From the UHGV virus genome UHGV-1364187: 64,000 nucleotides of DNA, one strand, 5' to 3'. The DNA comes from a virus. Both the position numbers and the translations under genes were made by a program. The notes beneath the pieces are model-generated. The model was not told the DNA's origin. It made no database searches and saw nothing but the letters and a program-made list of their open reading frames with translations. Below are positions 1,552 to 56,301 of this stretch, piece by piece. Numbering within the stretch: position 1 is the stretch's first letter; every line of letters starts with the position of its first letter.

Positions 1552-1660
1552 TAATATCCCTCCTATTTTTCTTAATATATTAAAGTTAATTCTTGTGTAA
1601 CTTTCAAATATATAATATATGATTTCATTTCATATTACTAAGAAAAAATAAAAGAACGGA

Positions 1661-1876
1661 TTACTCTGTTCTTTTATATTCTAAATCAAATACATCCATA
1701 ATAGTATCTAGATTTATACCTATAGATGATAATTTTTCTAATATATATTTCCGATATTCCATTTTAGTCTTTTCATGTATACACTTAACTCTAGAATACT
1801 TTGTGTATAATTTATCATTGTTTCTAGCAGCCATTCTAATACATATAGATTTTAATATATCATCACTTAAATTCAT
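1661..1876 (-). CDS. Hypothetical 71-aa protein
   Basis: ORF with an upstream RBS (aaagggggatgatt). Nothing recognisable. Confidence 0.4.
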   Translation of the reverse strand: MNLSDDILKSICIRMAARNNDKLYTKYSRVKCIHEKTKMEYRKYILEKLSSIGINLDTIMDVFDLEYKRTE

Positions 1877-2063
1877 AATTAATCATCCCCCTTTTAATAA
1901 TTATTAAAATCTACACCATATACTTTTTCTATTACTGTAAGTAGTTCAATATACTCATTTTCAGTAATAGGTTTACCATTGTGTGCAAATTGTTCAGTTT
2001 TTCCTCTATTTTTATAATACACAATACCATAATGATCTGTAATGATTTCCTCAATATCATCTA

Positions 2064-2366
2064 TTATAGTAATTGTAATATATATTTTTTTTGATCACCA
2101 ACTCTTGTAGATGAAAATACTATTAATGTATAATCTTTAGGTACGCCTTTATTGTCATCTATTTCGCAACCACAACTAGAAATACTATCATGTAAATCTA
2201 GATCTTCATCATATATAAAGTTTCTAATGAGTGACACATCACCACCATTCCAATTTTCTGGATTCCACGATCTGTCTTCATTAAACGCTCTAACTGGTTT
2301 AGATGCAAATCTTGGATTTGCACAATTTTCCTTATATAATTTTACAAATAATTCATGATTTACCAT
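2064..2366 (-). CDS. Hypothetical protein. The 3' end continues in another frame after an A8 run (see findings).
   Basis: 100-aa ORF with an upstream promoter/leader cassette variant. An open 65-codon continuation (1878..2070) lacks any start codon. Confidence 0.45.
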   Translation of the reverse strand: MVNHELFVKLYKENCANPRFASKPVRAFNEDRSWNPENWNGGDVSLIRNFIYDEDLDLHDSISSCGCEIDDNKGVPKDYTLIVFSSTRVGDQKKYILQLL

Positions 2367-2463
2367 AACTTAAACATCTCCTTTATTATTCTTTTATTCA
2401 ATAGTATAATATAATAATTGAAAATAATATTGGATAGAGTATAAAAACTCTATCCAATATTAA

Positions 2464-2916
2464 TTATGCTTTTTTAAGAGGTGCAATTGTTACTCTTCTT
2501 CTGAATGCATTTGGTACTTCTTTAATGTATTCTTTTTGAGCTTTTACCGCAGCTCTTGATGCTAAAGTACCATACTTAGCTTCCATTTTTTCTTCAAGAG
2601 ATTTTTCTTTCTCTTTATGTTTCTTCCATTGTTTCCATAATGGGTCATTCTTTTGTTGTGCTAAATAGATAGCAGCAGATTTTGTACGTCTTGATAAATC
2701 ATCAAGTTTTGAAAGAACTACTACAGAGTTAGCTTCTGTAATAATACCTTTATCGAACATTGCTTTAGCTACATCTGATTCTAAGAATTGCTCAAATTCT
2801 TCTTTAATAGGCATAGCCATAGCTAGTTCTTCCCATACCATAGCCTCTTTAATTGCTTTTTCATTATCTTCCTCTGTTTGAATTCTTGTATGTTCAAATA
2901 ATGCATCACCAAACAT
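2464..2916 (-). CDS. Hypothetical basic protein, 150 aa
   Basis: ORF with RBS aaggaggaatta, followed by terminator 2996..3040. Confidence 0.5.
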   Translation of the reverse strand: MFGDALFEHTRIQTEEDNEKAIKEAMVWEELAMAMPIKEEFEQFLESDVAKAMFDKGIITEANSVVVLSKLDDLSRRTKSAAIYLAQQKNDPLWKQWKKHKEKEKSLEEKMEAKYGTLASRAAVKAQKEYIKEVPNAFRRRVTIAPLKKA

Positions 2917-3108
2917 ATTAATTCCTCCTTAATTAGACTATATTGATTTATTTAAATGTTTTCATATATAAACTAATAAAGAGACAATTATGACAAAAAA
3001 TAAAAGGTAGTAGACTATATATCTACTACCTTTTATTATTTAAAGTTCTATCTTTAATACTATCTATAACTTATTATTTTTCATATAAAATACACTCATT
3101 TTTTTTAA

Positions 3109-3735
3109 TTATAATTCTTCTACTGATTCTCTTCCATCATTATTTATAATATTGTATGGTTCTTTAACATTTACAATTATTAAATCTGAACAACTTGTGT
3201 CTGCTTTACTACCTAATTCTTCTACTACTCTTATTAAATTTTCATCATCTCTTTTTATATCTTCAAAATTAAAGTCTATTTTTTCGCATAATTTAACATC
3301 TTCGATTTCTTCATCATAATAAGTATTAGTAAAGAATATACTATCTGAATTAATACGATATGATATGCTCAAAAATAATTCTGTAACTAATTTAGCTTTA
3401 TTGTCATCTATAGTCTTAAAATATGCGTATACATCTGAATTTGTTCTAAGTTTTAGATATTCAATACATGCTAACACACTTAAATCAAACCTACCAAAAC
3501 AATCATTAATTACTATTTGTTTCGTATTTTCTTTATCACTATCATGTTTATAATAAGAATATAATTCATCTGAATATATCATCTCATTACCACGATAATA
3601 TTGTTTTTCAATACTAACTTCAGCTTCTTGTTCAAAGTATTCTTCCAATTCTTCATTTTTATGTCCTAAGAATAAAACTACTTTTTCTAATAAACCACTT
3701 TTTTCATTGAATCTTTCATCTAATACTTTAATCAT
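3109..3735 (-). CDS. Hypothetical protein, 208 aa
   Basis: ORF preceded by the conserved promoter/leader cassette (3740-3795). Confidence 0.5.
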   Translation of the reverse strand: MIKVLDERFNEKSGLLEKVVLFLGHKNEELEEYFEQEAEVSIEKQYYRGNEMIYSDELYSYYKHDSDKENTKQIVINDCFGRFDLSVLACIEYLKLRTNSDVYAYFKTIDDNKAKLVTELFLSISYRINSDSIFFTNTYYDEEIEDVKLCEKIDFNFEDIKRDDENLIRVVEELGSKADTSCSDLIIVNVKEPYNIINNDGRESVEEL

Positions 3736-4326: not shown

Positions 4327-5367
4327 ATGGTCTTAGAAGAAAATTTAAATGATATGGAAGTTATCAAAAGATACAAGCAATTTTTTAAGGAGATGATTTG
4401 GTTTAATAAACCAAACATATCTGAGCAAGAATTAGAAGATGTAATGAATTGGTCAATACAGAAGAGAATCAAAAATTCATCATTAGAATTATATGATTCT
4501 TATAAGGAAAAACGAGCAGATTCATCAGTATTAGAATGGCTAGAATACTTCTATGCTAATGAACCAATTATAACTCCCAATGGGGTTATGTTTAAAAAAC
4601 ATAATGAAGAGCTTAATCCTGTGAATAAAATGATACAGGGATTCTTAAAAACACGTGCTAAATACAAAAAAGAAATGTTTAAATATCCTAAAGGATCTCG
4701 TGAATTTGAAAAATATAACCTACTTCAACTTCTCTCCAAGATTGATGCTAATAGTATATATGGTTGTTTAGGTAATTGGAGTGCTGTATATTATAACGTA
4801 AATGTTGCTAGTTCAGTTACAGCATGTGGTAAATCTTCTATTTCAGCAGCAGGTTTAGCATTTGAACAGTTCTTAGCAAATAACGTTAAATTTAGAAAGT
4901 TAGACGAAGTTATAGTATTTATTAATCATATCATTAAAGAAAAACCAAATAGAAAATTCAATGATAAAGATATTCTAGATAGAGATATTACAGTAGAAGA
5001 ATGTTTTATAAAAGTAATGTCTACATGTGGTCATGGTTATACTCCTTCTATGGAAGATTGTGAAATCATATGGGATATTATTAGTAAACTTAACAGTGAA
5101 GATCTTAATAGAATATACTATAAGAATAATCTATTAGAATTCTTTGACAATAAAGTAATGACTAATATGGTTATAGAAGTATTAAAGAGACTCAATAAAC
5201 CTTGGATGGATCCGAATAAAGTTCCAAAAGAAATTGAACTTGAAATGGATACAATGTGGGATTTAGTAAGTGAATATGTATTTTATAAATATCAAATCAT
5301 TGATAGACAAGATAGATTAGAGTTTCTTCCAAGAAAAATTACATGTATTATAGACACCGACTCTTTT
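4327..5367 (+). CDS. Family B DNA polymerase, C-terminal (palm/thumb) polypeptide, exon 1
   Basis: Carries motif B (LLQLLSKIDANSIYGCLG, the K..NS.YG pattern) and motif C (IIDTDS). The ORF stops immediately after DTDSFA at the intron boundary. Strong RBS taaggaggaattagg. Confidence 0.8.
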
Positions 5368-5772
5368 GCATAATAAACTGTTTTATTATGTAAATAGGAG
5401 CATTATATAGTAATATATAATGAAAACCCTTTTAATTGCTGGGAAGCCTTAAAGCTCACCTGCCTATATTTTAATGAATATAGGAACGAAAGTAGAAACA
5501 AGTGGTGAGATAGTATATGGTGTAAACCTAAGTACTGCAAACAATGGGTAATCAGCAGCGAAGTTTCTTATAAAGTTATAAGAAGAACGTTCAACGACTA
5601 TCGAAAAGACATGTTTATATAAACATGGAACTGAGTAGAGTACACTCAAGTGAGTGGAAATGGAGGGGGTCTTATTTTATATAAGATCATGATATAGTCT
5701 GCTCACTATGGAAACATAGTGAAGTTCATAAGAGAACTGCATAGAATTAACGACTCTATGTGAACATAAAGG
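5368..5772 (+). ncRNA. Group I self-splicing intron, with no homing-endonuclease ORF, inside the DNA polymerase gene between motif C and KKRY
   Basis: A roughly 400-nt ORF-free segment, GC-richer than its surroundings. A P7-like pairing is visible (ACGACTAT ... ATAGTCT). The core AATCAGCAGCGAAG..AAGAAGAACGTTCAACGACTATC is shared with two other introns in the window. The flanking exons are in the same frame. The exact splice junction is uncertain by about 3 nt. Confidence 0.6.
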
Positions 5773-6849
5773 AATATTTTGAACTTAGATTTTTGGTATA
5801 GATTTATCAAAGATAAAGTAATCGGTATTGATATGAAAATTAAACATGAAATGTATGACATTGCAGAAATCATTAAAGCTGATGAATTTGGTGATAGAGA
5901 AATGATGAAGCCTGCAGAGATAGTAGATATCGAAGATGATTATGATTTCTATGAAGATGAAACAGTAGAAATGGAAAGATTAATCAATCCTGCAAAATTA
6001 GTACCAAATGACTCATTAAGATATTCTATAATAAATATTATAGCATACTTATGTGGTAATATGATTAATGAAGAGATGGTATTATACACAAAACAGAACA
6101 ATTCTTATAGTCCTGATAGACCATGTAGTCTTATTATGAAGAATGAATTCTTATTTAAAAGAGTTTTATTGACAAATGTAAAGAAAAGCTACGCTAGCAT
6201 CATAGAGGTTCAGGAAGGAAATATAGTACCATCTTCCAGTTCATTGGACGTGAAAGGATTACAAATTAGAAAATCAACACTACCAAAAAGAACAAGAGAT
6301 CAATTACAAAGTATATTATATGAAGATATACTAAACTCTGGAGATAATCTCGATCAAAGATGCATACTCAAAGATATTATATTATTAGAAAAACAAATTT
6401 ATAAATCACTTACATCTGGTAGTAAAGAATACTTTAGACCAGCACAAGTTAAAGCTATGGGATCATATGAAAATCCACTAAGAATTTCTGGATTTAAGGG
6501 ATGTGTTGTATGGAATGAGTTAACAGATCTTAATACAGAAAAACATGATCTTAATATTAGAAATGCTGTTGATATTATCAAAGTAGTTTTAAATGCAAAA
6601 ACTGTCGATAAATTAAAAGATTTTCCTGATGTATATGAGAGAGCTGTGAAGCTATTAAACGATCCATCATTTGCAGGGGGAATTAATGGTATATCTGTAC
6701 CATTAGGAGTAGAAACACCAGAGTGGTTATATCAAATTATCGATTATAATACAATTATTAATGATAATTTATCAGTAATGCCATTAGAAAGTGTAGATAT
6801 AATTATTGGAAATTCCAATATAAACTATTCAAATATGGTGCAAATGTAA
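5773..6849 (+). CDS. Family B DNA polymerase C-terminal polypeptide, exon 2
   Basis: Contains the KKRY-type motif (NVKKSYASII) and thumb-like sequence. It is in frame with exon 1 after intron removal. There is an in-frame TAA at 5767, so exon 2 cannot begin before 5770. Confidence 0.7.
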   Translation, partial: NILNLDFWYRFIKDKVIGIDMKIKHEMYDIAEIIKADEFGDREMMKPAEIVDIEDDYDFYEDETVEMERLINPAKLVPNDSLRYSIINIIAYLCGNMINEEMVLYTKQNNSYSPDRPCSLIMKNEFLFKRVLLTNVKKSYASIIEVQEGNIVPSSSSLDVKGLQIRKSTLPKRTRDQLQSILYEDILNSGDNLDQRCILKDIILLEKQIYKSLTSGSKEYFRPAQVKAMGSYENPLRISGFKGCVVWNELTDLNTEKHDLNIRNAVDIIKVVLNAKTVDKLKDFPDVYERAVKLLNDPSFAGGINGISVPLGVETPEWLYQIIDYNTIINDNLSVMPLESVDIIIGNSNINYSNMVQM

Positions 6850-8828: not shown

Positions 8829-9020
8829 TTAATTTAAATTATTCTTAATCATATCACATTCGTCAATCATATCTTGAACTAATGATTTTACAATCTCTAA
8901 TACTGATTTTTTATCGTCAATATTATCTACTACAATTAGTGTATGTAATGATTCTTGTAATACTTCAATCTGATCGTTAAATAAAACTTCTACTTCTTCT
9001 CTTAATTCTTTCTTTTCCAT
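8829..9020 (-). CDS. Small acidic coiled-coil protein, 63 aa
   Basis: Upstream cassette at 9071-9102. The leader is duplicated at 16903-16990. Confidence 0.45.
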   Translation of the reverse strand: MEKKELREEVEVLFNDQIEVLQESLHTLIVVDNIDDKKSVLEIVKSLVQDMIDECDMIKNNLN

Positions 9021-9115
9021 AACTAAACAACTCCTTTAAATTTTTAGTAACATAGACTATTTACAATCATCTATATTCACCTTAATAATATATAAGTGAA
9101 ATATGAGACTTTTAC

Positions 9116-9156
9116 AAAAAAAATAAAAGAAGAGTCCAAATGGACTCTTCTTTATT
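9116..9156. terminator. Bidirectional intrinsic terminator
   Basis: aaataaaagaagagtccaaatggactcttctttattt. Confidence 0.7.
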
Positions 9157-9598
9157 TACTTTCTATTCTATAAGTTGTATCGTATGGTGTACTATACGAG
9201 TTAACTTTAAATCCCAATTTCTCTAATCTTTTTATTTCAGCATTAGAAAAATTATATTGATATGAAGACACTTCTATTGAGATACAATCTTTTGAAATGC
9301 TAGCAAGAAGTTTTTCAACGTTATTAGGTTCTCTTGCAGATTTATAATCATCTGCTTTACATTCTCTTTCAATATCTATATTATACTTAGAATAGAAATT
9401 TTCATGATCTAATATTGGTTCGAGATTATCAAGTACAATCCAGTGTTCTTTACTCCAATTATCAGTCTGGGTTAAACAAAATGCACGAGCTTCTATTCTA
9501 TCAGATTTGATTTCTGCATCTAATATTATATACAAGTTATCATCGTATCTGTATATATTAAATGGTTCATTTTTGAAGTCTTCTAATTTCATTTCCAA
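9152..9598 (-). CDS. Hypothetical protein, 148 aa
   Basis: ORF between terminator 9116-9156 and the ThyA gene. Confidence 0.45.
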   Translation of the reverse strand: MEMKLEDFKNEPFNIYRYDDNLYIILDAEIKSDRIEARAFCLTQTDNWSKEHWIVLDNLEPILDHENFYSKYNIDIERECKADDYKSAREPNNVEKLLASISKDCISIEVSSYQYNFSNAEIKRLEKLGFKVNSYSTPYDTTYRIESK

Positions 9599-9689
9599 TA
9601 TTTCTCTTTGTCTTTCTTGTATTTCTTTTTATAATTGATTATATCTTTCTTTATCCATCTTAAATTCTCTCCTTTTATTATATAATTAT

Positions 9690-10697
9690 TTAAATTGCTA
9701 CTGAAGCTTTAATAGCATCACCACATTTATATCCATTAATCTTAATATCTTCTAGTTTAATATTTCTAATATCTTCGCCTAATAGATCTTTAGTAAATTC
9801 AATCTTAGGTAAGTCGTATAATTCTCTAGATAGATATTCTTTTGCCTGATCAATATGATTTTGGTAAATATGTGTATCGCCAAAATTATATGTCATTGTT
9901 CCAACTTGTAATCCACTAATAGCACCCATCATATGTAAAAAGATTCCATATTCTGCTAAATCAAATGGAACCCCTAGAATACTGTCAGCACTACGTTGAT
10001 TTACAATCATATGTAATTTATCATTGATTACTAAAAACTGGATAGAAAATACACAAGGTGGTAAATCTACATAAGGAACACTAGCAGTATTCCATGAATT
10101 AAGAATAATTCTTCTTGAATCTGATTTACTCTTAATAAGTTTTTGTGTAATATCTAATTGGTCTACAATGTTCACAACGACTTCTTGTTCTTGAGTATTC
10201 ATATTATTCATTTCTACATGTTTATTATACTTCCAAGCATTACCATAGATATCTTCATATACTGTAAGTTCTCTAGATGTAATTTCATCATTAAGAATCT
10301 TTTGTTCAAAGATATCGAGTTGTTCTCTATATAGTTTAGCAAATTCTTCATCCTTATCTTTTAATACAGTCCAATTGTCTGGGAATACTGGTCCTGTATA
10401 TTTTTCATTTTCTGGGCATTTTCCCTCAATATATCTTTTAAATTTCCATTCTGTCCAGATATGTACATTTTGCTCTAATAATGTCTTTAAGTTTTGTTCT
10501 CCATTAATGAACCATAAAAGTTCTTTAATAGCTGTTCTATAAGCAGTTCTTTTTCCAGTAACAATAGGAACACTACCATCTGATAAATCAAATTTCATAC
10601 TATAACCAGGAATACGGATAGTTCCTACTCCAGTTCGGTCTGTGCTAACTTCACCTGTTTCTAAAATAGTTTTAATCATTTCTTTATATTGTTTCAT
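9690..10697 (-). CDS. thyA: Thymidylate synthase (ThyA family)
   Basis: The N-terminus DRTGVGTIRIPGYSMKFDLS matches the ThyA pattern DRTGTGT..FG.QMRFDL. The ELLWF motif is present. The active-site cysteine sits in a DLPPC context (LPPCVFSIQF). Confidence 0.9.
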   Translation of the reverse strand: MKQYKEMIKTILETGEVSTDRTGVGTIRIPGYSMKFDLSDGSVPIVTGKRTAYRTAIKELLWFINGEQNLKTLLEQNVHIWTEWKFKRYIEGKCPENEKYTGPVFPDNWTVLKDKDEEFAKLYREQLDIFEQKILNDEITSRELTVYEDIYGNAWKYNKHVEMNNMNTQEQEVVVNIVDQLDITQKLIKSKSDSRRIILNSWNTASVPYVDLPPCVFSIQFLVINDKLHMIVNQRSADSILGVPFDLAEYGIFLHMMGAISGLQVGTMTYNFGDTHIYQNHIDQAKEYLSRELYDLPKIEFTKDLLGEDIRNIKLEDIKINGYKCGDAIKASVAI

Positions 10698-10750
10698 AAC
10701 TATTAACCTCTCTTTTCTAATGTAATTATATATAAGTTTATGGGTGGTTA

Positions 10751-10790
10751 AAAAAATAAAAAAAAGAAGAGGATTAATCCTCTTCTATAA
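10751..10790. terminator. Intrinsic terminator downstream of ThyA
   Basis: aaaaaaataaaaaaaagaagaggattaatcctcttct. Confidence 0.65.
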
Positions 10791-10794
10791 ATTG

Positions 10795-11382
10795 TTATAT
10801 GATATGTTCAGCTGCTTCGATGACTTCACGTCTATTGCATGTGGTAGCATTAATACGTTGTTCTATGTGAATAATATTATCATCAGTACAAGCAGAAATA
10901 TTTAAAGTATTAAACTCAGTATTTAATCTAATAAGTAAATCTTTTATTGTGAAATTCTGTTTCAATGGTTTATTGATATCAATATCAATAAGCATATATC
11001 TATCTTCATCACCATAATATCTAGTTGTTACATGATATCTAGATTTTATGTCAATATTCTTAGACTCTTTATTGTTTATACAATTTGATAATTTTTCATA
11101 TAGGTCAGAAACATCTAAACAATACTGACTACGTGCTCTAATATAATCTATAGTATTTGTTAAAAATTTAGCTTCTTTTTTAGTTATCTTGATATAATAT
11201 TCAGTATTTTCATCTTCAAATTCTTTAAGTTCTTTTTTGATGAATTCTTCATTTAGAATGATATAATTAATAGAACCTTTATATTCTATATATAGAACAT
11301 TTAGTTTTATACAATCAACAAGTTCATGTGTTATATGTGTATCTGTATCAAATTGTATAGTCTCTTCATAAGACATTTTCAA
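10795..11382 (-). CDS. Hypothetical protein, 195 aa
   Basis: ORF preceded by a 28-codon uORF with RBS (about 11383-11470). Confidence 0.4.
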   Translation of the reverse strand: MKMSYEETIQFDTDTHITHELVDCIKLNVLYIEYKGSINYIILNEEFIKKELKEFEDENTEYYIKITKKEAKFLTNTIDYIRARSQYCLDVSDLYEKLSNCINNKESKNIDIKSRYHVTTRYYGDEDRYMLIDIDINKPLKQNFTIKDLLIRLNTEFNTLNISACTDDNIIHIEQRINATTCNRREVIEAAEHII

Positions 11383-11494
11383 TTCATTAACTATATAATC
11401 ATATAGTACAGATTTCCCATTTTAGTTAATTTCTCTTTTAATACTTCCATTTTCTCTTTATCTACAAATTTTCTCATTATAATCTCTCCTTTTT

Positions 11495-12532
11495 TTACAT
11501 ATGTTTTAATTGATTTAATACTTCTGCTTGAATATCTGATGGGGTTGCTGGTAATGATAATTTTGGTAAAATATCTTCTGGTTTAGCTTCAAGTTTCTCA
11601 ATTAGCTCAATAGCATATTCTCTTTCTAGTAAAGGAACTTCAACTTTAAGATCAAATCTACCACTTCTAGTAACAGCATCGTCTACTCTATCTATATAAT
11701 TTGTTGTTGCTATAAATATTACATCGTTAATAGATGCAATACCATCTAGTACATTAAGTATATCACCAATAACATTCATTGTTTCTTTATTATCATCTGT
11801 AATTGATTCGTCACGTCTACCAACGTAACAATCAATATCTTCTAATACAATTACACATTTTTCTATAGAACCCATATTTCTCAAGTTACTAATTGTTATT
11901 GGTGTTGTTATAACTACTGAGTATTCTAAATAATTAGCAATTGCTTGGATTAATGATGTCTTTCCACCTCCTTTAGGACCATATAAAACTATACCACCTT
12001 TATATGAAATATTGTGTCTACGATAATAATCTTTATTAGAGATCCACATATCTAAATAATCTTTATTTTTTTCTTTACTTGGAGTTACAATATCGTCAAA
12101 TGTCTTAGTTGGTAAATCTAATAAACCATTAAACTCAGTGCTTTTAATTTTACCTTTTCTACACCCAACAGTTATATTATCCTGGATCTCTTTCATATAT
12201 TTTCTAGAATTAATACCAGTTAGTTTACACTTTAAAGCTGACATTGTATCTTTATTATTATTACACATTATTTCACACACTTCAAATTCCATTCTGGTAA
12301 ATTTATATACATTGAAAGAATATTTACCATCTGGTAAGAAGTAAGTTTTTCCATTATCACATGTACATTTAAGAGTATCAAATTTATGAGTATTTTTAAA
12401 TATCCAATCGTATGTAAAATTAAATCCATATCTACTTGCAAGTTTACAGAACTCAATAGTGTATCTATCATTTACTTTCTTGTAAACAATCTTTCCTAAA
12501 CTTACTGTAGCTGCTGTAGCTAAAGATACCAT
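11495..12532 (-). CDS. AAA+ family ATPase
   Basis: Walker A motif GPKGGGKTSL and Walker B motif VIVLEDID, with SRH-like sequence. An N-terminal domain of about 200 aa has no assignable function. Confidence 0.75.
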   Translation of the reverse strand: MVSLATAATVSLGKIVYKKVNDRYTIEFCKLASRYGFNFTYDWIFKNTHKFDTLKCTCDNGKTYFLPDGKYSFNVYKFTRMEFEVCEIMCNNNKDTMSALKCKLTGINSRKYMKEIQDNITVGCRKGKIKSTEFNGLLDLPTKTFDDIVTPSKEKNKDYLDMWISNKDYYRRHNISYKGGIVLYGPKGGGKTSLIQAIANYLEYSVVITTPITISNLRNMGSIEKCVIVLEDIDCYVGRRDESITDDNKETMNVIGDILNVLDGIASINDVIFIATTNYIDRVDDAVTRSGRFDLKVEVPLLEREYAIELIEKLEAKPEDILPKLSLPATPSDIQAEVLNQLKHM

Positions 12533-12639
12533 AATTTCTTTTTTTCATTGATTTTAACATATTATATTTCATAATAAAAAACATCTCCTTTAATATTATT
12601 ATTCAATTATATAATATATAATTAAAACTATTTTACTAC

Positions 12640-12682
12640 AAAAAAATAAAGACTAAGAGATAATACTCTTAGTCTTTATATA
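12640..12682. terminator. Intrinsic terminator
   Basis: aaaaaaataaagactaagagataatactcttagtctttata. Confidence 0.65.
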
Positions 12683-13579
12683 TTAAGCTATGTTTAAAGA
12701 ATCGGTACAAACCTTTCTAAAATCATCACTATATATCAATCTATCCCAAGGTCTTACAAAGAACATTACGTTATGATAGTGTTTACATAGATAAGATAAT
12801 TTTTCTAATCTTTGATTATCATTGAGTTCATTAGTATTACTCCAAGAATGATAATATGTATCATGTGACTCAAAGAACCTTACTGATCCTCTATCCATAT
12901 TAGCGTACTCATCAACTAATACTTTACACTGTTTTGTATATTTATTAAGTAAATATGTAGGGCAATTTAGACATTCTCCATATATAAACTTATCTTTATA
13001 TCTAGAGAATACATTATACCATATATTACATCCCTCTTCTGGTAATGCATAATGTTTACACATATCTAGTCTAAATCCATCACATCCTAGACTAAATAAT
13101 TCATCTAAGAATGGAACATAGACTTTTTCTTGTAGTTCTGTACTTTTATAATCTAATCTTGGCATTCCCCAACACCCGTTTATTATATCAAATCTATTAT
13201 CTGGATTGGTATAATCTTGTGTTATTATATACTTTAACAATTCTTTATCTACATCTTGATGTGGTTCTAGTTTTCCATTATCATTTCCAGCAACATGTCT
13301 CATTACTACATCTGGAAATACAAATATATCATATTTATGTGATTCTTTACATAAATCTCTTAAATCATCTTTAGTTCCTAGTCTATTTCCTATATTAAAA
13401 TTTAGTATTTGATATAGCTTCCACCATTCTTTATCGGCATTGTATTCATTTATACTTTTACATTCTGTAACTGGTGAAGTTTGTATAGCGTCAACTCCTT
13501 GATATTTAAAGAATTCTATATTTTCAGTAACATTGGTAAGTCTCCAGTTGAAAGTGTTTAAAATAATCATAATAAGCAC
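12683..13579 (-). CDS. Glycoside hydrolase family 13 (alpha-amylase family) enzyme, compact form
   Basis: All four GH13 conserved regions are present: region I DVVMRH, region II GFRLDMCKH (nucleophile Asp), region III YGECL (acid/base Glu), region IV FFESHD. An N-terminal GVDAIQTSPV matches the beta2 strand. Confidence 0.6.
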   Translation of the reverse strand: MLIMIILNTFNWRLTNVTENIEFFKYQGVDAIQTSPVTECKSINEYNADKEWWKLYQILNFNIGNRLGTKDDLRDLCKESHKYDIFVFPDVVMRHVAGNDNGKLEPHQDVDKELLKYIITQDYTNPDNRFDIINGCWGMPRLDYKSTELQEKVYVPFLDELFSLGCDGFRLDMCKHYALPEEGCNIWYNVFSRYKDKFIYGECLNCPTYLLNKYTKQCKVLVDEYANMDRGSVRFFESHDTYYHSWSNTNELNDNQRLEKLSYLCKHYHNVMFFVRPWDRLIYSDDFRKVCTDSLNIA

Positions 13580-13669
13580 CTCCTATAATTACCAATTTTT
13601 TACATTTATGTTAACTTACATTCTATACTTGAAAAATAAAAGAGTACACATGTACTCTTTTATTATAAC

Positions 13670-14632
13670 TTACTTTTTACACATCATAATAATATGTTGT
13701 ATTAAATATTTATTAGTAATATCTACATTATACATTTTTATAGATATAATACAACAATCACCAACATTAATGGTTTCAGAAGAAAGCTTATATCCCAATA
13801 AACTAAGTACCTGTAAAAGTTTTTGTACATTAACTTTGCTATTATCTACAGTAAATTGGTATACATCTTCTACTATATTTGAACTCTTTTCATAATTCTC
13901 TACAAGTTTAACTATATATTCTTCATTAATCTCATAAGTATATGTAGATTTATTATATAAAACATCATATAGAATATTATTTTTATCAAATGTAATATTA
14001 TATAATATAATATTATTAGTATTACCATATAAATATACACTATTCATTACAATAACAACATTTATATCATCACTCTTATCATATCGTTCTAATAGATCTT
14101 TTGTAACAAGTTTATTTATAATGAAATTTTGACCATATTTTTCAATATACTGAATATATTTCTTATGAATGTCTTGCATATGATACATATAGTCAATAAT
14201 ATCATCAATCTTTCCTATGTACATTAAACCTTTGTCTGTTATAATATGTAAATTATTATCAATATGTGTAAGACATTCACTTTCCATATCAATATTGGTT
14301 GCACTTTGCATATTATTTCTGATAAGATAATTATATATAACAGATTTAATATCACTAAATTTCATAATCCAATTAAACTTAAGATCATTCATTACATACT
14401 CATCATTAAGTTTGAATTTATCGCAACCTACTCTAGTAATTAGCTTAGTATCAATAATACCATAAGTTAAACATTCTGAGATAAATCCATTATGCTCATC
14501 ATTTTTATATTCTTCTCCAAATTGAAATTGTTTAATAAAGTTAATAAATATATCATTATATTTTTCTTCTTTCATTTTCTTTACTAAAACTTGCATCTTT
14601 TCTTGATTTGTGAATTCTTTCATTATAAACAT
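13670..14632 (-). CDS. Hypothetical protein, 320 aa
   Basis: ORF with RBS aaaggagatgttt. Confidence 0.45.
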   Translation of the reverse strand: MFIMKEFTNQEKMQVLVKKMKEEKYNDIFINFIKQFQFGEEYKNDEHNGFISECLTYGIIDTKLITRVGCDKFKLNDEYVMNDLKFNWIMKFSDIKSVIYNYLIRNNMQSATNIDMESECLTHIDNNLHIITDKGLMYIGKIDDIIDYMYHMQDIHKKYIQYIEKYGQNFIINKLVTKDLLERYDKSDDINVVIVMNSVYLYGNTNNIILYNITFDKNNILYDVLYNKSTYTYEINEEYIVKLVENYEKSSNIVEDVYQFTVDNSKVNVQKLLQVLSLLGYKLSSETINVGDCCIISIKMYNVDITNKYLIQHIIMMCKK

Positions 14633-14735
14633 CTCCTTTAAAATTTACATTATTATTTATTATTAACAGATTTTCTGTTAATGATATTTATATCTTTCTT
14701 CTTTCGGAACAAGTATTGCTGGAACAACCATATGT

Positions 14736-15344
14736 TTACCATCTACATATTTTTGAACTATTAAGAAGTTGTTGTTGCATTTGCTGTATTTGATTGTTTA
14801 CATTTTGTTCCAAATTAGTTATTCTATTGTCGATATGATCACAAACATTTCCTAACATACTAGACACTACTCTAGTTATATCATATGTAAGCTGTTGTGA
14901 ATTAAAATGGAATTTAGTTTCACCTAAATCATCTTTGATATACGTTTCATTCATATTACCATATATCGCTTCCATTATATTTTCAGCATCAACTACAGGA
15001 TTAGATACATGATAATTTGGATTATGTTGATTTGATGTATATTGTCCAGTGTGATAAATATCTATAAGAACTTCATGTGTAACCCAATTAAAGAACTCTG
15101 TAGCTTTTGGCATTCTAGAACTTTTCACTAAATCCAATAGACCTGATAAAGAAACAAATGTCATATTATTTCGTCTTCCTAAAGAATCGACGCTACTCCA
15201 AATCGACGTATCGTCCTTTTTACAATGTTTACGTATTGCATCATTTGTCCTTGAATATCCTAAAATCTCACATACATCTCTACCACAATATAATACATCT
15301 TGTTCGTTTCCTCCTTCTGGTATAATAAATTCTAACATTTCCAA
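14736..15344 (-). CDS. Bro-N / KilA-N family protein (anti-repressor-like)
   Basis: DVLYCGRDVCEILGYSRTNDAIRKHCK and ATEFFNWVTHEVL fit the Bro-N pattern. A 14-codon uORF and a 15-bp perfect palindrome lie upstream. Confidence 0.55.
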   Translation of the reverse strand: MEMLEFIIPEGGNEQDVLYCGRDVCEILGYSRTNDAIRKHCKKDDTSIWSSVDSLGRRNNMTFVSLSGLLDLVKSSRMPKATEFFNWVTHEVLIDIYHTGQYTSNQHNPNYHVSNPVVDAENIMEAIYGNMNETYIKDDLGETKFHFNSQQLTYDITRVVSSMLGNVCDHIDNRITNLEQNVNNQIQQMQQQLLNSSKICRW

Positions 15345-15422
15345 ATGTTCATTGTAATAATTCTTGAACTACATTGTTTTTATCTTGTTCCATAATATTA
15401 TCCTCCATAATGTTTAAAATTT

Positions 15423-15456
15423 ATAGTGAATATAGATCATTCTATATTCACTATAA
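15423..15456. promoter_or_regulatory. Perfect 15-bp inverted repeat TATAGTGAATATAGA-tcat-TCTATATTCACTATA within the promoter region of the Bro-N gene
   Basis: Read directly from the sequence. It overlaps the conserved promoter motif, so it is a candidate operator. Confidence 0.45.
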
Positions 15457-15488
15457 TAATATATAATTGTAAATCGTTTTACTATATT

Positions 15489-15740
15489 CTATTTATAATT
15501 GAAACTAAAGACATAAGCATTATAATATCTTAATTTATACACCTCATCAATTTCAATCTCCTCATCTCCTAGAAGATATGTTCCTCTTTTTGGTGCATGT
15601 GTTCGGTTATCTTCAAACCAATCACACATAACCATAATCATTAACTTTCCATCATATTCAACAAACATACCTTTTGTCATGCTTGTTGATTTTTCTTTCT
15701 CTTTGTTCTTATTTGTTTTAAAATAAGATATCCATTCCAT
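15489..15740 (-). CDS. Hypothetical protein, 83 aa
   Basis: ORF only. Confidence 0.35.
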   Translation of the reverse strand: MEWISYFKTNKNKEKEKSTSMTKGMFVEYDGKLMIMVMCDWFEDNRTHAPKRGTYLLGDEEIEIDEVYKLRYYNAYVFSFNYK

Positions 15741-15856
15741 TTATAATTTAATCTGTATGAAACGTATCCTCTAAAATATCCCATACAATAATCTATATCA
15801 TTGTCAGATATAGATGGTACCATACCCCCTTAATTGTTCATTAATTTCCATAATTA

Positions 15857-16222
15857 TTATCTCCTTTCATAATCTATAATTAATATAACAAATTTACCTT
15901 CATATGATGATAGTTCTTTTAGTATATCATGTCCACCTATATTGAACTTTCTATCTGTATATAAATAATCAGATGTTTCTGACCAATTTATATTATATTG
16001 TGTATCTAATGTACCATTTATACTATTACATATAAGATTTTGTGCTTCTTCTAGTGTACACTCTTTATCTGATATAAAGTATTTAACAGAAGATTCACAA
16101 TGAACTATACCGTAGTCATTTGTTATTTCTTCTAAAAGATTTAGATCATCAATATATAAATCATATTCTAAATCTTCTGCTTCTATTAATTTGATAAATC
16201 CACTAATTACTAAAGTTCTCAT
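15857..16222 (-). CDS. Hypothetical acidic protein, 121 aa
   Basis: ORF only. Confidence 0.4.
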   Translation of the reverse strand: MRTLVISGFIKLIEAEDLEYDLYIDDLNLLEEITNDYGIVHCESSVKYFISDKECTLEEAQNLICNSINGTLDTQYNINWSETSDYLYTDRKFNIGGHDILKELSSYEGKFVILIIDYERR

Positions 16223-16639
16223 TTTTTATTTACCCACTTTCATATTTCTTTATGTTTTCTTAGACACTCTATATTTATCAAATATTATATAGTAATAATT
16301 GATATCTTTAACTTAGTATAAATACCATGTTAAAAAAATAAATACTAGAGATTTTACTCTCTAGTATTTATATTATCATTTATGCATTTTAGATTAATGA
16401 TTTATCTTTAATCTTCATCATTTGAATAAGTATCTATATAATATTCATCTTCTATAGAACTTGTATGAACAGTTTCCGTATTTAGTACTTTATCTACTAA
16501 TCTTATACTAATTTTACTAATAGCTTCACTTATTTTCTTAGATACATAATATGTAACTGCTACATATCAAACTAATTTTACTACAAATTTATATCCAGTC
16601 ATAACTTTTTCCATATTAAACTTTTTCATATCTTATCTC

Positions 16640-16903
16640 TCCTTTTTTATTATTTACTACTCTTCGATTTGTTCTTCTGATTCTCTTTTTAATACACTTT
16701 TAATTTTAGATGATATTTTTGTAAAAACTTTCTTAATAAAATCTACACCACTTGTCATCATAACGAATATACTAAGTACGAATGCTGCACCTATCACTGC
16801 ACCAACAATAATCTCTCCAACTACTGTGAAGATGTCCTTATCAATTTTCTTTGTCTAAAGCTTTCTTGTAATCATTTGCAAATTGTACTAACTCTTTTTT
16901 CAT
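16640..16903 (-). pseudogene. Frameshifted small membrane-protein gene. The leader and start are duplicated from the 9020 locus.
   Basis: ATG at 16903 with the same leader as 9020. After 20 codons a frame change is needed to continue into a 62-codon TM-containing frame (DKDIFTVVGEIIVGAVIGAAFVLSIFVMM..). A second small ORF at 16383-16605 carries an in-frame TGA. Confidence 0.35.
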
Positions 16904-16995
16904 AACTAAACAACTCATTTTAATTTTTAATAACATAGACTAATTGTAATCTATATTCATATTGATAATATATAACTAAAATTTTGAATATTTAC

Positions 16996-17035
16996 AAAAA
17001 ATAAAGAAGAGTCTAATGACTCTTCTTTTATTATT
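16996..17035. terminator. Intrinsic terminator
   Basis: aaaaaataaagaagagtctaatgactcttcttttatt. Confidence 0.65.
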
Positions 17036-17050
17036 TATTTTATATCTTTA

Positions 17051-17782
17051 CTATTTTTCTCCATATGGATATTCTTCATTAGATATTTCTTTTATAACTT
17101 TATAAAGCATATCTTGAAAATATCTCCATTCCATACACACATCTCTCTTACTATATGCGGAAGAACATTTTCCCTCATGTGGAACTAAATATTTTCCTCC
17201 AGAAGGTCTTTCTTCAAATGTAAATCTACATTTATCATCTACTAAGTTAGCACATTTACCTCCCCATGATGCTGTAATATAATTATCATCATTATCGTTT
17301 CTACTTCTTAGATAATAAACTTTGTCTAATTCATCTTTCTCACAATCAACATCCCCTTCCCAATAATCTAATGTAACTAGACCTTTCTTTAATAATTCCA
17401 ATATTCCATTAACACTAAAATCTTGTACATCATATGGGGATAACTCACATCCCATACAATTACAACAATTTCCTTTACATTCAGAGCATAGAGAGCAATC
17501 TTCATTGTTCTCTATGTATAAAAAGTTTATTACTTTATTAATACGTGTATATAAACCATATATACCTTTTCTTAATTTACCGAAGAATGCTTTTACGTTA
17601 TCCTCTGTTTTGACATGGTCTAATTCTTTAAGTTTTGTGTTATAATTGATAAGTCTTTCTTGTAGTTTGTAGATATGATTTCTTAATAAACCAGATCTAA
17701 TATCTGAAACAAAAGACATATCAATTGTTTCTGGGTGCTCTAATAGTTCTGATATTTTTGATTTTAATTCATTCTTATTCAT
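17051..17782 (-). CDS. Cysteine-rich hypothetical protein, 243 aa
   Basis: Cysteine cluster CSLCSECKGNCCNCMGCE, plus further cysteines towards the C-terminus. Start overlaps the stop of the upstream gene. Confidence 0.45.
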   Translation of the reverse strand: MNKNELKSKISELLEHPETIDMSFVSDIRSGLLRNHIYKLQERLINYNTKLKELDHVKTEDNVKAFFGKLRKGIYGLYTRINKVINFLYIENNEDCSLCSECKGNCCNCMGCELSPYDVQDFSVNGILELLKKGLVTLDYWEGDVDCEKDELDKVYYLRSRNDNDDNYITASWGGKCANLVDDKCRFTFEERPSGGKYLVPHEGKCSSAYSKRDVCMEWRYFQDMLYKVIKEISNEEYPYGEK

Positions 17783-18405
17783 TAATTAATCCCCTTTTCT
17801 TTAACAGTTTTTCTTTCTCTATCTAGAATCTTTTGTAAAGATTCTATTGCCGTATCATGTTGAATTTTGAATGATAGAGTATAATCTTTCTCTATATAAT
17901 TATCTAGATAATATATAGTCTTTTCAAGTATATCAAGTATATCATTACATTTGATATTATCATTCATATATCTCATACTAATCATAGCTTGTAATATGTC
18001 TAATACCATAAAATACAATGCAAATCTAGTATATCCATATTTTTTGTAATTATTTATATATAATTTAATAATGATAGTATTGTTTGTTGATTTTTGATCT
18101 ATTGAATGCACATAATATGTAATACTATCATCATTATACAAATCTTCTAATTTACCTATACAATACTCATATGTATTATTTATATCATTTTGTAATATAT
18201 TGCTTATACATATGATAGGTTCCATTGGACATTTAGAATATTTTACCATAGAATCTCTATATTTACTTAGAAATTCTGTAGTAGTGTTAAAGAATTCTAC
18301 AGAATCTTTAATTTTAAATTGATCAGTGTTTATTGGAAATTCTAGATCGATCTTATAAAAATACTTATATTTTAGAGTATCTATTAACTTGTTTAAGAAT
18401 TTCAT
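17782..18405 (-). CDS. Hypothetical protein, 207 aa
   Basis: ORF coupled to the downstream gene. Confidence 0.45.
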   Translation of the reverse strand: MKFLNKLIDTLKYKYFYKIDLEFPINTDQFKIKDSVEFFNTTTEFLSKYRDSMVKYSKCPMEPIICISNILQNDINNTYEYCIGKLEDLYNDDSITYYVHSIDQKSTNNTIIIKLYINNYKKYGYTRFALYFMVLDILQAMISMRYMNDNIKCNDILDILEKTIYYLDNYIEKDYTLSFKIQHDTAIESLQKILDRERKTVKEKGIN

Positions 18406-18479
18406 ACTACATACCTCCTAAGAATGGTACATTACTATCTTTTAGCTTTAATGTAAATTCTGTAATGAGATAATGATCT

Positions 18480-18788
18480 TTATCTTTTGCAACATGTTTT
18501 TTTTGGAATATATTTGTATAATATATTATCGTCATCAAGATAATCTAACGTGTTTGACATTAAATTATATCTATCATTTCCTACTGGTTCTTTTGTGATA
18601 GCTATAATAGGTCTATAATATTTATTCTTTGTGTATGCATAAACATTTTCAATTTCTGTTTCTACAAATTCGATACACTTATTAATAAATCCTTCCTTAT
18701 CTTTAATACTTTTTAAATCTTTAATAATTTGCATTGTTAATTCTTTGTTTTCCATAATAAAACATCTCCTTCTAATAATATTATTCAC
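18480..18788 (-). CDS. Hypothetical protein, 102 aa
   Basis: Conserved cassette upstream at 18773-18808. Confidence 0.45.
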   Translation of the reverse strand: MNNIIRRRCFIMENKELTMQIIKDLKSIKDKEGFINKCIEFVETEIENVYAYTKNKYYRPIIAITKEPVGNDRYNLMSNTLDYLDDDNILYKYIPKKTCCKR

Positions 18789-35202: not shown

Positions 35203-35841
35203 CTATAGAAATCTATATGTTATATATACATCTATTACAATTTTCTTCTTTTTATATACAGTAAACTTACTAGTGAAATATTTCAATTTATCTGTAGATT
35301 TATCATTATATATACTTAATGATAGTTTATCTCCTTTATTTATTGGTAATAATCCTTTATATAATGACATGATGTATCCATTCTTTCTATACATAACTAC
35401 TCCATCTTTAGCAAGCATTGATGATAATCTAACAATATCAGGATCATCTGTTATGTCATCATAAAAATGATCATATTTTACAAAATTAGATAATTTATAT
35501 ATTAGATTTATTCCATCTGGAGGAACAACTATATTCATTATAATAATAGGTTGACTCTCTCCATTTAACCATATATACAAATTACCATACATATCCATAT
35601 CTACACTAAATAAGTTCTTATCACATATTGCATATATATCAGGTATGAAATAACAATATATCAATCCATTATTAAATTCATCTAAGATAAATTCAGTTGT
35701 TTTTGCATATGAAAATAACTTATTTGATGATACTAAAGATGATCCGTGGATCATCAATATATCATCTGATTTAAGAATTTTTAGAATATCTATAATTGAA
35801 TTAACGGTTTGATTTTGCAAAGTTTTCATCGTAGTATTCAT
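35203..35841 (-). CDS. Hypothetical protein, 212 aa
   Basis: ORF overlapping the stop of the polymerase N-fragment. Confidence 0.45.
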   Translation of the reverse strand: MNTTMKTLQNQTVNSIIDILKILKSDDILMIHGSSLVSSNKLFSYAKTTEFILDEFNNGLIYCYFIPDIYAICDKNLFSVDMDMYGNLYIWLNGESQPIIIMNIVVPPDGINLIYKLSNFVKYDHFYDDITDDPDIVRLSSMLAKDGVVMYRKNGYIMSLYKGLLPINKGDKLSLSIYNDKSTDKLKYFTSKFTVYKKKKIVIDVYITYRFL

Positions 35842-37744
35842 ATTGAACTCCTTCCATAGCTTTATTCATATTATTATACGTTGATATGAATATAGCAGGT
35901 TTATATAATTCTTTAGAAAATTCTGCAGGTCTCATTAATAAATTATTATTTACAATTCTAGCAGGAATAAACATACCTGTATGTTTATCTACATATTCAT
36001 AGTTACTACAGATCATTTGTGTTGTAAAGAATTCTTCAATATCATGAAGCATTTCTTTGTAATCTGCAAGATGAAGATATCTATGACAAAATTCGACAAT
36101 ACTTTCAGATTGAAGACATTCAAACATATCTCCAGCTCTATCATATTTCTCATTATCAAATGGATTTTCTTTATCATAAATCGCGTTATGTGCAATAACT
36201 CTAGCGATAATAGTATTAGGTGCAATATTATGTTGATCTATTTCACTTGGGTACAGGGCTTTAAAGTCAAAATCATCGCCATTATCAAATAACCATGTAG
36301 GTTTTCCATTAATTTTAACAAATCCATCTCTAACAACATGAGTTGGATCTCCTACTAATGCACCTGCATATTTATTTTCGGGTTTTTCACCGAACTTGTT
36401 AGCATTACATCCCATTATTAATCCATCTTCATAAAACTCTTTTGTTCCTCTATTAGAAAGATATACAGTTTGCCTATGTGATTTTGGAATACGAGTATTA
36501 TTAAGTAAAGCTTTATTGAAAATATATCCTACATCATCACATCTTTGTTCAACTACTTTTTGTACTATTGTATCCATGATGTTATATAAAGTAAAATCTC
36601 TAAAATTATAATATTCTCTATCTGCAAATCTAAGATTAGGTGGAAATGCTTCATATTTACCAATCTTAGCTATCATTTTACCTATGGTATCCAATTTATA
36701 GTTAGGAAACTTTGATTGACCTTTACGTCTACTTGCAAAATGTTGCAATTGGTCCATGTAAATAGTATATCCACTTATAGCAGAATAATCACCTTTAAGT
36801 TCAAATTCATTTTTGTGTTGTTCGTCTATATAATATTTACATTGTTTGTATTTAAAATCTGGATGACACATGATATCCATTGGATCATATCCTAATTTTT
36901 TAATTCTTTCCATGATATATGGAATATCAAATGCCATGTTCCATGCCAATACAAAATCTGGTTGTGTTGAATTTATATACATAAATAAATCTTGAAGTAA
37001 AGTTATTTCGTCATCATAAAATACTTGATCATAAACATAATCTATTACTCCTAATCGAGTAGCTTGTTTCCAACCACCTACAGATTTAACAACAAAGTCA
37101 TAAGCAGCTTTTTGAAATTCTCCTCTCATAACTTCTTGTTCTAATTGAGCAACTTGTGGATTAGTTGGATCTCTAAGTATCAAAGTAGTAACAATTTTCA
37201 TTTTATCATTTACTAATGTGATTAAGTTTATTGGATAATCTCCATAGTGATCTGATAAATCTTCATCTCCAGGCATATCTTTAACTCTAACCTCAATATC
37301 TAGATATGCTTTTGATAAATCAAATAATTGATTTTGATAATTCTGACTGAATACAAATCTATAGTAATCATTTATATCCATATCAGCTAAGAATACTTCG
37401 TTAAGTGTAAATAATCTCTTATTTGCACTAAAATTTTTATTCTTCATATTTTCATAAAAGTATTCTAAATTTCCAGTTTCTTTAGCTATACTTTTTAATA
37501 AATCTTTATATTTACAAGTAACTGGACGTACTCTTTCTTTTTCTATGAATAGATGATGATAATCTAATATTTCATTATCATTAGCCATAAAATAAGTATA
37601 AGTTGGATTTACAATATCTTGATGATGTTTCAATCCAGTATCATTATCTCGATATATAACAGTCATTACATCTTTATCATCGTACTGACCGTAGATTGTA
37701 TCAAGAATTGTTAAGTTTGATCCTTTATCATATCCTTTAATCAT
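35801..37744 (-). CDS. Family B DNA polymerase, N-terminal polypeptide (3'-5' exonuclease domain plus motif A)
   Basis: Exo I YLDIEV, Exo II FDIPYI, Exo III YNIMDT, and pol motif A DFDFKALYPSEI. The ORF ends about 135 aa after motif A, with no motif B or C. Confidence 0.8.
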   Translation of the reverse strand: MIKGYDKGSNLTILDTIYGQYDDKDVMTVIYRDNDTGLKHHQDIVNPTYTYFMANDNEILDYHHLFIEKERVRPVTCKYKDLLKSIAKETGNLEYFYENMKNKNFSANKRLFTLNEVFLADMDINDYYRFVFSQNYQNQLFDLSKAYLDIEVRVKDMPGDEDLSDHYGDYPINLITLVNDKMKIVTTLILRDPTNPQVAQLEQEVMRGEFQKAAYDFVVKSVGGWKQATRLGVIDYVYDQVFYDDEITLLQDLFMYINSTQPDFVLAWNMAFDIPYIMERIKKLGYDPMDIMCHPDFKYKQCKYYIDEQHKNEFELKGDYSAISGYTIYMDQLQHFASRRKGQSKFPNYKLDTIGKMIAKIGKYEAFPPNLRFADREYYNFRDFTLYNIMDTIVQKVVEQRCDDVGYIFNKALLNNTRIPKSHRQTVYLSNRGTKEFYEDGLIMGCNANKFGEKPENKYAGALVGDPTHVVRDGFVKINGKPTWLFDNGDDFDFKALYPSEIDQHNIAPNTIIARVIAHNAIYDKENPFDNEKYDRAGDMFECLQSESIVEFCHRYLHLADYKEMLHDIEEFFTTQMICSNYEYVDKHTGMFIPARIVNNNLLMRPAEFSKELYKPAIFISTYNNMNKAMEGVQYEYYDENFAKSNR

Positions 37745-53985: not shown

Positions 53986-54448
53986 CTACACAAATTGTGT
54001 AGCAGACTATATCACCACCATATACTTTAAAAAAGTACTTAGGTGCCTCCCATTTCGGATATACTATATCCTACTCTACTCACTTCGTCTATATCTAATT
54101 TATTAGATATACCTTATTTTTAACTAGATTACTAGTATATTAGCTTTCGATAGTCGTTGAACTTTAATCTTTGAATATAGTTTTATATTTATATATTATA
54201 TTTGATATTATTCAAAGATTCTTAGCTGCTGATTGTAGATCTGTTACGTTAACTTAGCACCTATTATTGAATAGGCTTTTATCTCAGCATATCAACACAG
54301 AATCAATTTTTTCTGTCTTTCGACGACATTCACACCCATCCTTACGGATCATGTTGTAGTTTGATTCTGAATAACTACTTCCCAGACAAATTAAAGAGGT
54401 TTTTACTTCTATCTTTTTCAAGATAAAAGGCACATGTATGTCTATGCA
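53986..54448 (-). ncRNA. Group I intron in the RNAP beta gene
   Basis: Read on the minus strand it shares AATCAGCAGCtAAG..GTTCAACGACTATCGAAAG..GATATAGTCTGCT with the polymerase intron. Splicing CCAGT|..intron..G|TGGTGGG restores the frame as ..YSRTPVGGSMEAS.., which parallels the conserved beta segment ..YSLVTQQPLGG... Confidence 0.6.
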
Positions 54449-56219: not shown

Positions 56220-56301
56220 TGTTTCTTCTCCTCCTTGAATGTTTAATATATGATAGATATAAGAAAAAGTTCATTATATCTATCATATATATAATATATA
56301 A

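Follow-up and report, generated by a model that had tools for sequence, protein, structure and literature searches.

α-Amylases of glycoside hydrolase family 13 (GH13) usually form a three-domain A/B/C module, typically with Ca2+ (PMC13599479). Amy16 of Ruminococcus bromii and the amylase of Bacillus subtilis (AmyE, also called BSUA) are members of GH13 subfamily 28 (GH13_28) (PMC12663171). BSUA is a secreted enzyme whose solved structures cover 422-425 residues, with domain C, a full helix α6 and a region I (DAVINH) that contains the calcium-ligand Asn. Amy16 is an 851-amino-acid (aa), secreted and dockerin-bearing protein of the cell surface; it has additional modules, and its region I reads DVVANH. 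It is an amylosome enzyme of a gut Firmicute and is active on α-1,4 linkages in maltoheptaose and starch (PMC12663171). On the viral side, GH13 α-amylase genes on phage contigs have been read as auxiliary genes of polysaccharide metabolism (PMC12607003; PMC9723584), and α-amylase was among the common families of bS21-encoding phages (PMC9723584). We analysed a stretch of 64,000 nucleotides of the virus genome UHGV-1364187 (the whole stretch is called the window), in which a minus-strand gene had been predicted to encode a compact GH13 enzyme. Our analysis showed that the window protein is a GH13 protein by family and by fold, and that it keeps the catalytic features of GH13 amylases and lacks both their domain C and their calcium-ligand features. 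Such compact proteins are not unique to this phage, and they form a large clade that recurs in gut phages. Among the possible roles, we favour with modest confidence an intracellular, probably calcium-independent α-1,4-glucan hydrolase that would mobilise host glycogen or maltodextrin during infection.

The Pfam profile, the PDB sequences and the fold searches all agreed on GH13 membership, and none of them placed the protein outside the family. Profile PF00128 matched with 46.7 bits (gathering score 22, E-value 3.6e-12), with only residues 15-182 aligned. When all PDB sequences were searched with phmmer, the best match was R. bromii Amy16 (9QF9, E 2.1e-22), the B. subtilis-type amylases 1UA7, 1BAG and 3DC0 (the last from Bacillus sp. 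KR-8104) were found at about E 1e-21, and the GH13_28 matches ranged from 2e-22 to 6e-21. Other amylase groups, the animal ones included, started only at E 6e-12, which means that GH13_28 scored about 10 orders of magnitude better. The AlphaFold2 model, for which the input was a 20-sequence family alignment, had eight strands, a mean predicted local distance difference test (pLDDT) of 94 and a predicted template modelling score (pTM) of 0.92. Foldseek with this model gave template modelling (TM) scores of 0.85-0.86 to 3DC0, 1UA7 and 1BAG (E 6e-22) over the whole query, the best fold match, and 0.82 to Amy16. The nearest characterised group therefore appears, from these comparisons, to be GH13 subfamily 28. 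For the window protein there was no PHROGs family and no NCBIfam family or equivalog above cutoff, and the viral structures of BFVD contained no close analogue, the top one being a giant-virus GH13 protein with TM 0.44.

The four GH13 signature regions and the GVDAIQTSPV motif, which had been listed in the original prediction, were all found in the translation (Table 1), and alignment to solved amylases confirmed that the catalytic residues Asp169, Glu199 and Asp237 are in place. In the phmmer alignment, these three residues together with Arg167, His92, His236 and Lys172-His173 map onto their counterparts in 1UA7 and 1BAG, and WWKLYQ, downstream of GVDAIQTSPV, pairs with WYWLYQ of the solved enzymes. 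The same residues and the Tyr-Gln of WWKLYQ were invariant in the 20-member alignment (40-56% identity). The catalytic and subsite roles of the aligned positions are those that we take from general GH13 knowledge. At only about 22% identity, the window protein shares with BSUA the triad, the aligned AIQTSP, WxxLYQ, GFRxDxxKH, YGE and ESHD segments, and small or aliphatic residues after the catalytic Glu. The enzyme is probably catalytically competent. GH13 is a retaining family, and one triad serves hydrolysis and transglycosylation. The shared triad and the conserved residues would thus also suit an α-glucanotransferase, which would disproportionate maltodextrin or glycogen chains like an amylomaltase but with the scaffold of GH13, or would make or modify an α-glucan inside the infected cell, and the reduced loops and missing α6 described below could change water access. 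We think this unlikely, as no transferase-specific feature was identified in the window protein and its nearest characterised relatives, the B. subtilis amylase and Amy16, are hydrolases (PMC12663171).

The protein had been described as a minimal barrel without a C domain, and the model and the alignments confirmed this. Domain B is also kept, and in the model it is a stretch of about 55 residues inserted between β3 and α3. The degree of reduction had been understated, however, since α6 is deleted too and the calcium-ligand Asn is changed to Arg. In the model, just 21 residues, including a lone 7-residue helix, lie beyond β8, so domain C is absent, and only a loop connects β6 (218-222) with β7 (231-234), where α6 is missing. 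In the phmmer alignment, window residues 230-233 cover residues 233-259 of the B. subtilis enzyme, which runs about 120 residues past the β8 of the window protein, with the remaining barrel surface and the whole domain C. Compared with Amy16, the window protein is a bare core.

The Asn of region I, which we take from canonical amylases to be a structural Ca2+ ligand, is Arg91 in the window protein, and the phmmer alignment of the calcium-site Asp in domain B is ambiguous by two residues. The enzyme probably works without calcium, judged from its residues. Free Ca2+ is low in the cytoplasm, and the exchange of Asn for Arg would be a plausible adaptation to this. A precedent is AmyY of Alkalimonas, a metal-free typical GH13 α-amylase with substituted metal ligands (PMC13599479). 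But AmyY is secreted and has domains A, B and C plus CBM20, and its metal loss came through acidic-to-neutral changes (PMC13599479), whereas the window protein has a basic Arg.

A word-indexed search found 159 relatives, most of them 285-298 aa long and 40-56% identical to the window protein. An exhaustive profile search through 1.84 billion cluster representatives gave 6584 matches at E <= 1e-3; among the best 150 of these, about 90 were 270-350 aa, and the remainder were long multi-domain amylases of 440-2640 aa. For quantitative analysis, 93 compact and 59 long sequences, each representing a cluster at 50% identity, were aligned to the family hidden Markov model. The D-E-D triad was intact in 89 of the 93 compact forms (three exceptions were gapped at region IV, with an apparently truncated C-terminus) and in at least 56 of the 59 long homologues, where the shortfalls were alignment gaps. 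The +1/+2 subsite had Lys in 81/93 and His in 68/93 compact forms. The reduction was also seen across the clade: the median spacing of regions III and IV was 35 residues in compact versus 60.5 in long homologues, and the median number of residues after region IV was 56 versus at least 133. At the calcium-ligand position of region I, the compact forms had Asn in only 26 of 93, with Arg in 44, Thr in 8 and His in 5, while all 58 long sequences scored there had Asn.

The compact forms differed from the long ones at the N-terminus as well. The median offset ahead of β1 was 0 residues versus 55, and a signal-peptide-like N-terminus was found in 2/93 compact versus 47/59 long sequences; the window protein itself begins right at β1 and has no signal peptide. 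Median Cys content was 2.42% versus 1.0% (Mann-Whitney p 7e-19); 11 Cys are present in the window protein. A neighbour-joining tree, built without bootstrap or CAZy references, split the sequences into a group with 90 compact and 4 long members and a group of 53 long members, which suggests that the compact forms are a sister or derived clade. Long gut-metagenome amylases (P0164, P0171, P0188 and others) scored E 1e-73 to 1e-52 against the compact-family profile, so they are the likely source lineage. Taken together, these features point to a distinct, cytoplasmic and probably calcium-independent lineage that came from secreted GH13_28-like amylases. For the window protein, a cytoplasmic location would follow from the absent signal peptide, the high Cys content, the β1 at the N-terminus and the lost calcium-ligand Asn. 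A scan of GTDB returned 24 loci, of which only the top few were compact, one of them possibly cellular, and the two weaker matches sampled (L012 and L027) were long amylases of the ordinary kind, with 530 and 472 aa.

Secreted enzymes with which gut Firmicutes degrade starch are the closest relatives (PMC12663171), and the compact relatives derive from gut metagenomes, so the protein might instead act outside the cell after lysis, where it would degrade starch granules or an α-glucan matrix round hosts and ease phage diffusion or receptor access. This role is improbable for a Cys-rich protein without signal peptide, carbohydrate-binding module, virion or tail domain, which has lost the calcium-ligand Asn that the secreted relatives always keep; the genes of its relatives also lie in early or replication regions and not in lysis or structural modules.

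The open reading frame (ORF) 12683..13579 of the original prediction was borne out by the ORF list and the translation, and the opposite, plus-strand frame across the locus has many stops. Its start was wrong: the 298 aa had been counted from a GTG at 13579 that overlaps the AGGAGG of the ribosome-binding site, taking its final base and two further bases, whereas an ATG follows this site after 8 nucleotides (nt). Homologues begin with MIILNTFNW... or MKILH..., and a metagenome protein (P0001) that is 100% identical to the window protein has 295 aa. Based on this evidence, we place the gene at 12683..13570.

Terminator-like hairpins lie on both sides of the gene, so it looks like a small transcription unit of its own. 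The hairpin upstream of it was not listed by the terminator scan, as its loop is too short and its G-C pairs are too few for the scan rule; it resembles a terminator, which would insulate the GH13 gene. Terminator-like hairpins were strongly enriched in 9000..18600 (10 versus 1.1 expected), where they bracket single genes. Two hairpins, at 9126..9153 and 17003..17028, have a common stem AAAGAAGAGTC...GACTCTTCTTT, and both are bidirectional. The sequences ahead of the minus-strand genes were searched for a common promoter motif, which gave just loose, AT-rich TATATAAT-like elements, and a sigma-70 promoter scan showed no enrichment relative to shuffles. The strong ribosome-binding site and the terminator of the gene also bear on whether the protein could be what remains of a captured amylase, catalytically dead or in decay, or could bind glucan without turning it over. 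The loss of domain C, α6 and the calcium site and the Pfam alignment confined to residues 15-182 would be in line with this, but the triad and the substrate-contacting residues are conserved over about 90 diverged clusters, the model is well packed (pLDDT 94), and the family persists on unrelated phage backbones. We consider a remnant very improbable.

Table 1 Features of the GH13 locus and its neighbours in the window
Feature	Position (nt)	Strand	Details
Compact GH13 gene	12683..13570	minus	295 aa; span includes stop codon; domain A without α6, plus domain B
β2 region GVDAIQTSPV	13469..13498	minus	Residues 25-34; pairs with GYTAIQTSPI of B. subtilis enzyme
Region I DVVMRH	13295..13312	minus	Residues 87-92; Asp87, Arg91, His92; from sequence and family alignment
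Region II GFRLDMCKH	13052..13078	minus	Residues 165-173; Arg167, Asp169 (nucleophile), Lys172, His173 (Lys-His, +1/+2 subsites)
Region III YGECL	12968..12982	minus	Residues 197-201; acid/base Glu199; from alignment to solved enzymes
Region IV FFESHD	12860..12877	minus	Residues 232-237; His236, transition-state stabiliser Asp237; from alignment
Ribosome-binding site AGGAGG	13579..13584	minus	8-nt spacer to ATG 13570; read from sequence
Hairpin AAAGAGTACA/TGTACTCTTT, then T-run	about 13639..13660	minus	Just 3' of preceding gene 13670..14632; spotted by eye
Intrinsic-terminator-like hairpin	12646..12679	minus	14-bp stem and T-run, directly 3' of GH13 stop codon
AAA ATPase	11495..12532	minus	PF00004, E 1.6e-19; phrog_7485 (unknown function), E 4e-35
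ThyA homologue	9690..10697	minus	TIGR03284 (thymidylate synthase), 261 bits; two genes from GH13

In the glycogen-mobilising role that we favour, a GH13_28-type α-amylase of Firmicutes would have been pared down to the barrel and domain B. The enzyme would act inside the infected cell, on stored α-1,4-glucan (glycogen, or granulose, which is the glycogen of clostridia) or on maltodextrins, and we infer this substrate because glycogen and maltodextrins are the sole abundant cytoplasmic α-1,4-glucans. The glucan pieces would then enter glycolysis and the pentose-phosphate pathway through phosphorylases and glucosidases of the host, and the resulting supply would be ATP and nucleotide precursors for phage replication. 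Early expression and a benefit to the phage would be expected in this case. The pentose-phosphate genes of cyanophages, which redirect host carbon to dNTP synthesis (PMC4103541), are an accepted precedent, but a functional analogy only, since their proteins and hosts are unrelated to those considered here. Of the three functions originally offered, mobilisation of host glycogen fits best. The other two, a remodelled surface glucan and transfer to an unusual acceptor, have against them the absence of a signal peptide, the conserved Lys-His pair and a neighbouring ThyA homologue that is methylase-like.

The genomic settings of sampled compact relatives showed that the GH13 gene recurs in early, replication or nucleotide-metabolism regions on several unrelated phage backbones. 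One of these is a phage of about 60 kb that is common in pig and human gut assemblies, with one protein variant in 109 indexed blocks. There, a class II ribonucleotide reductase is encoded five genes upstream of the GH13 gene, whose block also has a dUTPase, a single-stranded-DNA-binding protein and a DUF5906 primase-like protein. In a related phage, a guanylate kinase is immediately upstream of the compact GH13 gene. A 34 kb element carries it with ThyX, ERF, DnaB, ParM-like and FtsK-like genes, and in an integrase-bearing phage it is located three small genes downstream of a cI/cro-like pair and upstream of a DnaB module. Other carriers were a Hadza-gut contig with many small ORFs, a Clostridium metagenome-assembled genome (MAG) contig whose neighbouring genes match PHROGs, and a short metagenome contig (L044) where the gene adjoins a 682-aa Cpn60/TCP1-family chaperonin gene (1649..3697, minus strand).

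The 60 kb gut phage (L001, L002, L003 and L005, contigs of about 57-73 kb, and L032 from IMG/VR) is highly prevalent and apparently uncultured, and a DNA search found no counterpart in INPHARED. Its DUF5906 protein has 1314 aa, and a 939-aa protein has weak, faint matches to helix-turn-helix families.

Two genes away from the GH13 gene, the ThyA homologue of the window has Asn177Asp (GVPFDLAEY) and His147Val (PPCV) in E. coli numbering and keeps Leu143 (DLPPC) and the thymidylate synthase C-terminus KASVAI. The structure of the L. casei N229D mutant (1NJC) outscored the wild type as a match. Under the published residue rules for ThyA-like enzymes (PMC13326640, PMC8670742), these residues predict a dCMP methylase that would give 5-methyl-dC, and not a hydroxymethylase. 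The phage DNA may carry 5-methylcytosine in place of cytosine. AR9, PBS1 and S6 are uracil-DNA phages, and a 5-methylcytosine DNA would be unlike these relatives of the window. A 411-aa protein (44415..45650) has a guanylate-kinase-like N-terminal domain and could be a matching dNMP kinase.

With the dCMP-specifying Asn177Asp so close, the DNA is probably modified, and several phages place the compact gene among usual anti-defence or host-takeover sites, for example near the cI/cro-like switch. Both observations would suit an early counter-defence transglucosylase that is independent of nucleotide sugars, with maltodextrin or glycogen as donor and phage DNA, a wall polymer or a signalling molecule as acceptor. 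But the ThyA homologue is predicted to methylate, which would leave no hydroxyl group for glycosylation (PMC13326640), and the DNA glycosyltransferases reported in the same paper resemble nucleotide-sugar enzymes, no glycoside hydrolase being mentioned in that work (PMC13326640). Among the features of phage DNA-base glycosylation, a GH13 TIM barrel was found instead of a glycosyltransferase fold, and a methylase-like ThyA homologue. Relatives also occur in phages with an ordinary ThyX or dUTPase, and the Lys-His pair typical of amylases is conserved as counted above. This transglucosylase is hardly probable, and DNA glucosylation was rejected as the leading explanation because the Asn177Asp neighbour looks like a methylase. 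A milder idea is that the compact forms make up a new subfamily of GH13 and represent its smallest catalytic module that is self-sufficient, which would be metal-free through an Arg in place of Ca2+; we regard this as more likely than a non-glucan transglucosylase.

Several points weigh against the glycogen-mobilising hydrolase. The activity, substrate and expression of the compact clade are predictions, and sequence does not separate hydrolysis from transglycosylation. The loss of domain C and α6 could impair stability or alter specificity, and glycogen storage by the host is presupposed. Proximity to nucleotide genes may merely mirror a general placement in early and middle regions. One compact gene, in a Bacilli MAG (L009), lies near ATP-binding cassette transporter genes and may be cellular, so the clade is not strictly viral. 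Across the loci examined there was also no conserved neighbour of the GH13 gene, and the compact enzyme would thus work alone.

The window itself is a jumbo-phage-like genome, and the GH13 gene is inside it with phage genes on both sides. It has about 26% GC, and the GC fraction around the GH13 gene is 0.25, native to the phage. It encodes a large terminase, which shares 35-38% identity with its counterparts in the jumbo phages Goe21, BpSp, AR9, PBS1 and S6 of Bacillus and Staphylococcus, and also a tail sheath, an RNA polymerase beta-like protein of the multisubunit type, two DNA polymerase loci, a UvsX/RecA-like protein, an SbcC-like protein and an NAD-dependent ligase. INPHARED had no near-DNA match to 9000..17000, and its protein matches were weak (22-33% identity), to unannotated faecal 'Bacteriophage sp.' fragments and two Enterococcus phage records. 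The minus-strand run consists of the ThyA homologue, an unknown gene, the AAA ATPase, the GH13 gene, an unknown 320-aa gene and a Bro-N protein. The PF00004 match confirmed that an AAA ATPase adjoins the GH13 gene on the minus strand, as had been noted; it has a classic-clade AAA domain (residues 181-301), and the roughly 170 residues at its N-terminus are uncharacterised. A two-gene AAA-GH13 system was rejected, as neither the AAA ATPase nor another neighbour recurs at any other locus examined.

Some further genes of the window were recorded. A group I intron (5377..5721, plus strand; RF00028, 81.6 bits, E 3e-19) splits a DNA polymerase gene just past DTDSFA, and the exon ORFs 4327..5373 and 5779..6849 match positions 16-331 and 429-702 of phrog_2927. 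A second DNA polymerase gene is at 35801..37744 (minus; phrog_3011, E 6e-51), and a weaker 'polymerase' match is at 47544..49265 (minus; phrog_2943). The RNA polymerase beta-like gene (54442..56286), together with this polymerase set, is typical for jumbo phages with their own transcription machinery.

The GH13 family and phage-borne amylase auxiliary genes were already known. However, the viromics reports of α-amylases (PMC12607003, PMC9723584) are annotations only and do not describe a form without domain C, and a landfill viromics amylase is near-identical to a Prolixibacteriaceae protein. The accessible part of a 2024 review of prokaryotic α-glucan enzymes does not mention phages, and the compact clade had no matching entry in PHROGs, NCBIfam or BFVD. 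What appears to be new and undescribed is a conserved GH13 protein of 285-300 aa without domain C, α6 and, usually, the calcium-ligand Asn, and its spread over unrelated gut and jumbo phages. If its members are active, the clade would, at that length, provide a natural GH13 catalytic module of unusually small size, which bears on the need for domain C and the calcium site, and would offer a compact, possibly chelator-proof scaffold. If the glycogen-mobilising role is true, many gut phages, including temperate, prevalent 60 kb and jumbo ones, would hold a dedicated enzyme for host glycogen, as the counterpart in heterotrophs to the carbon-redirecting genes of cyanophages.

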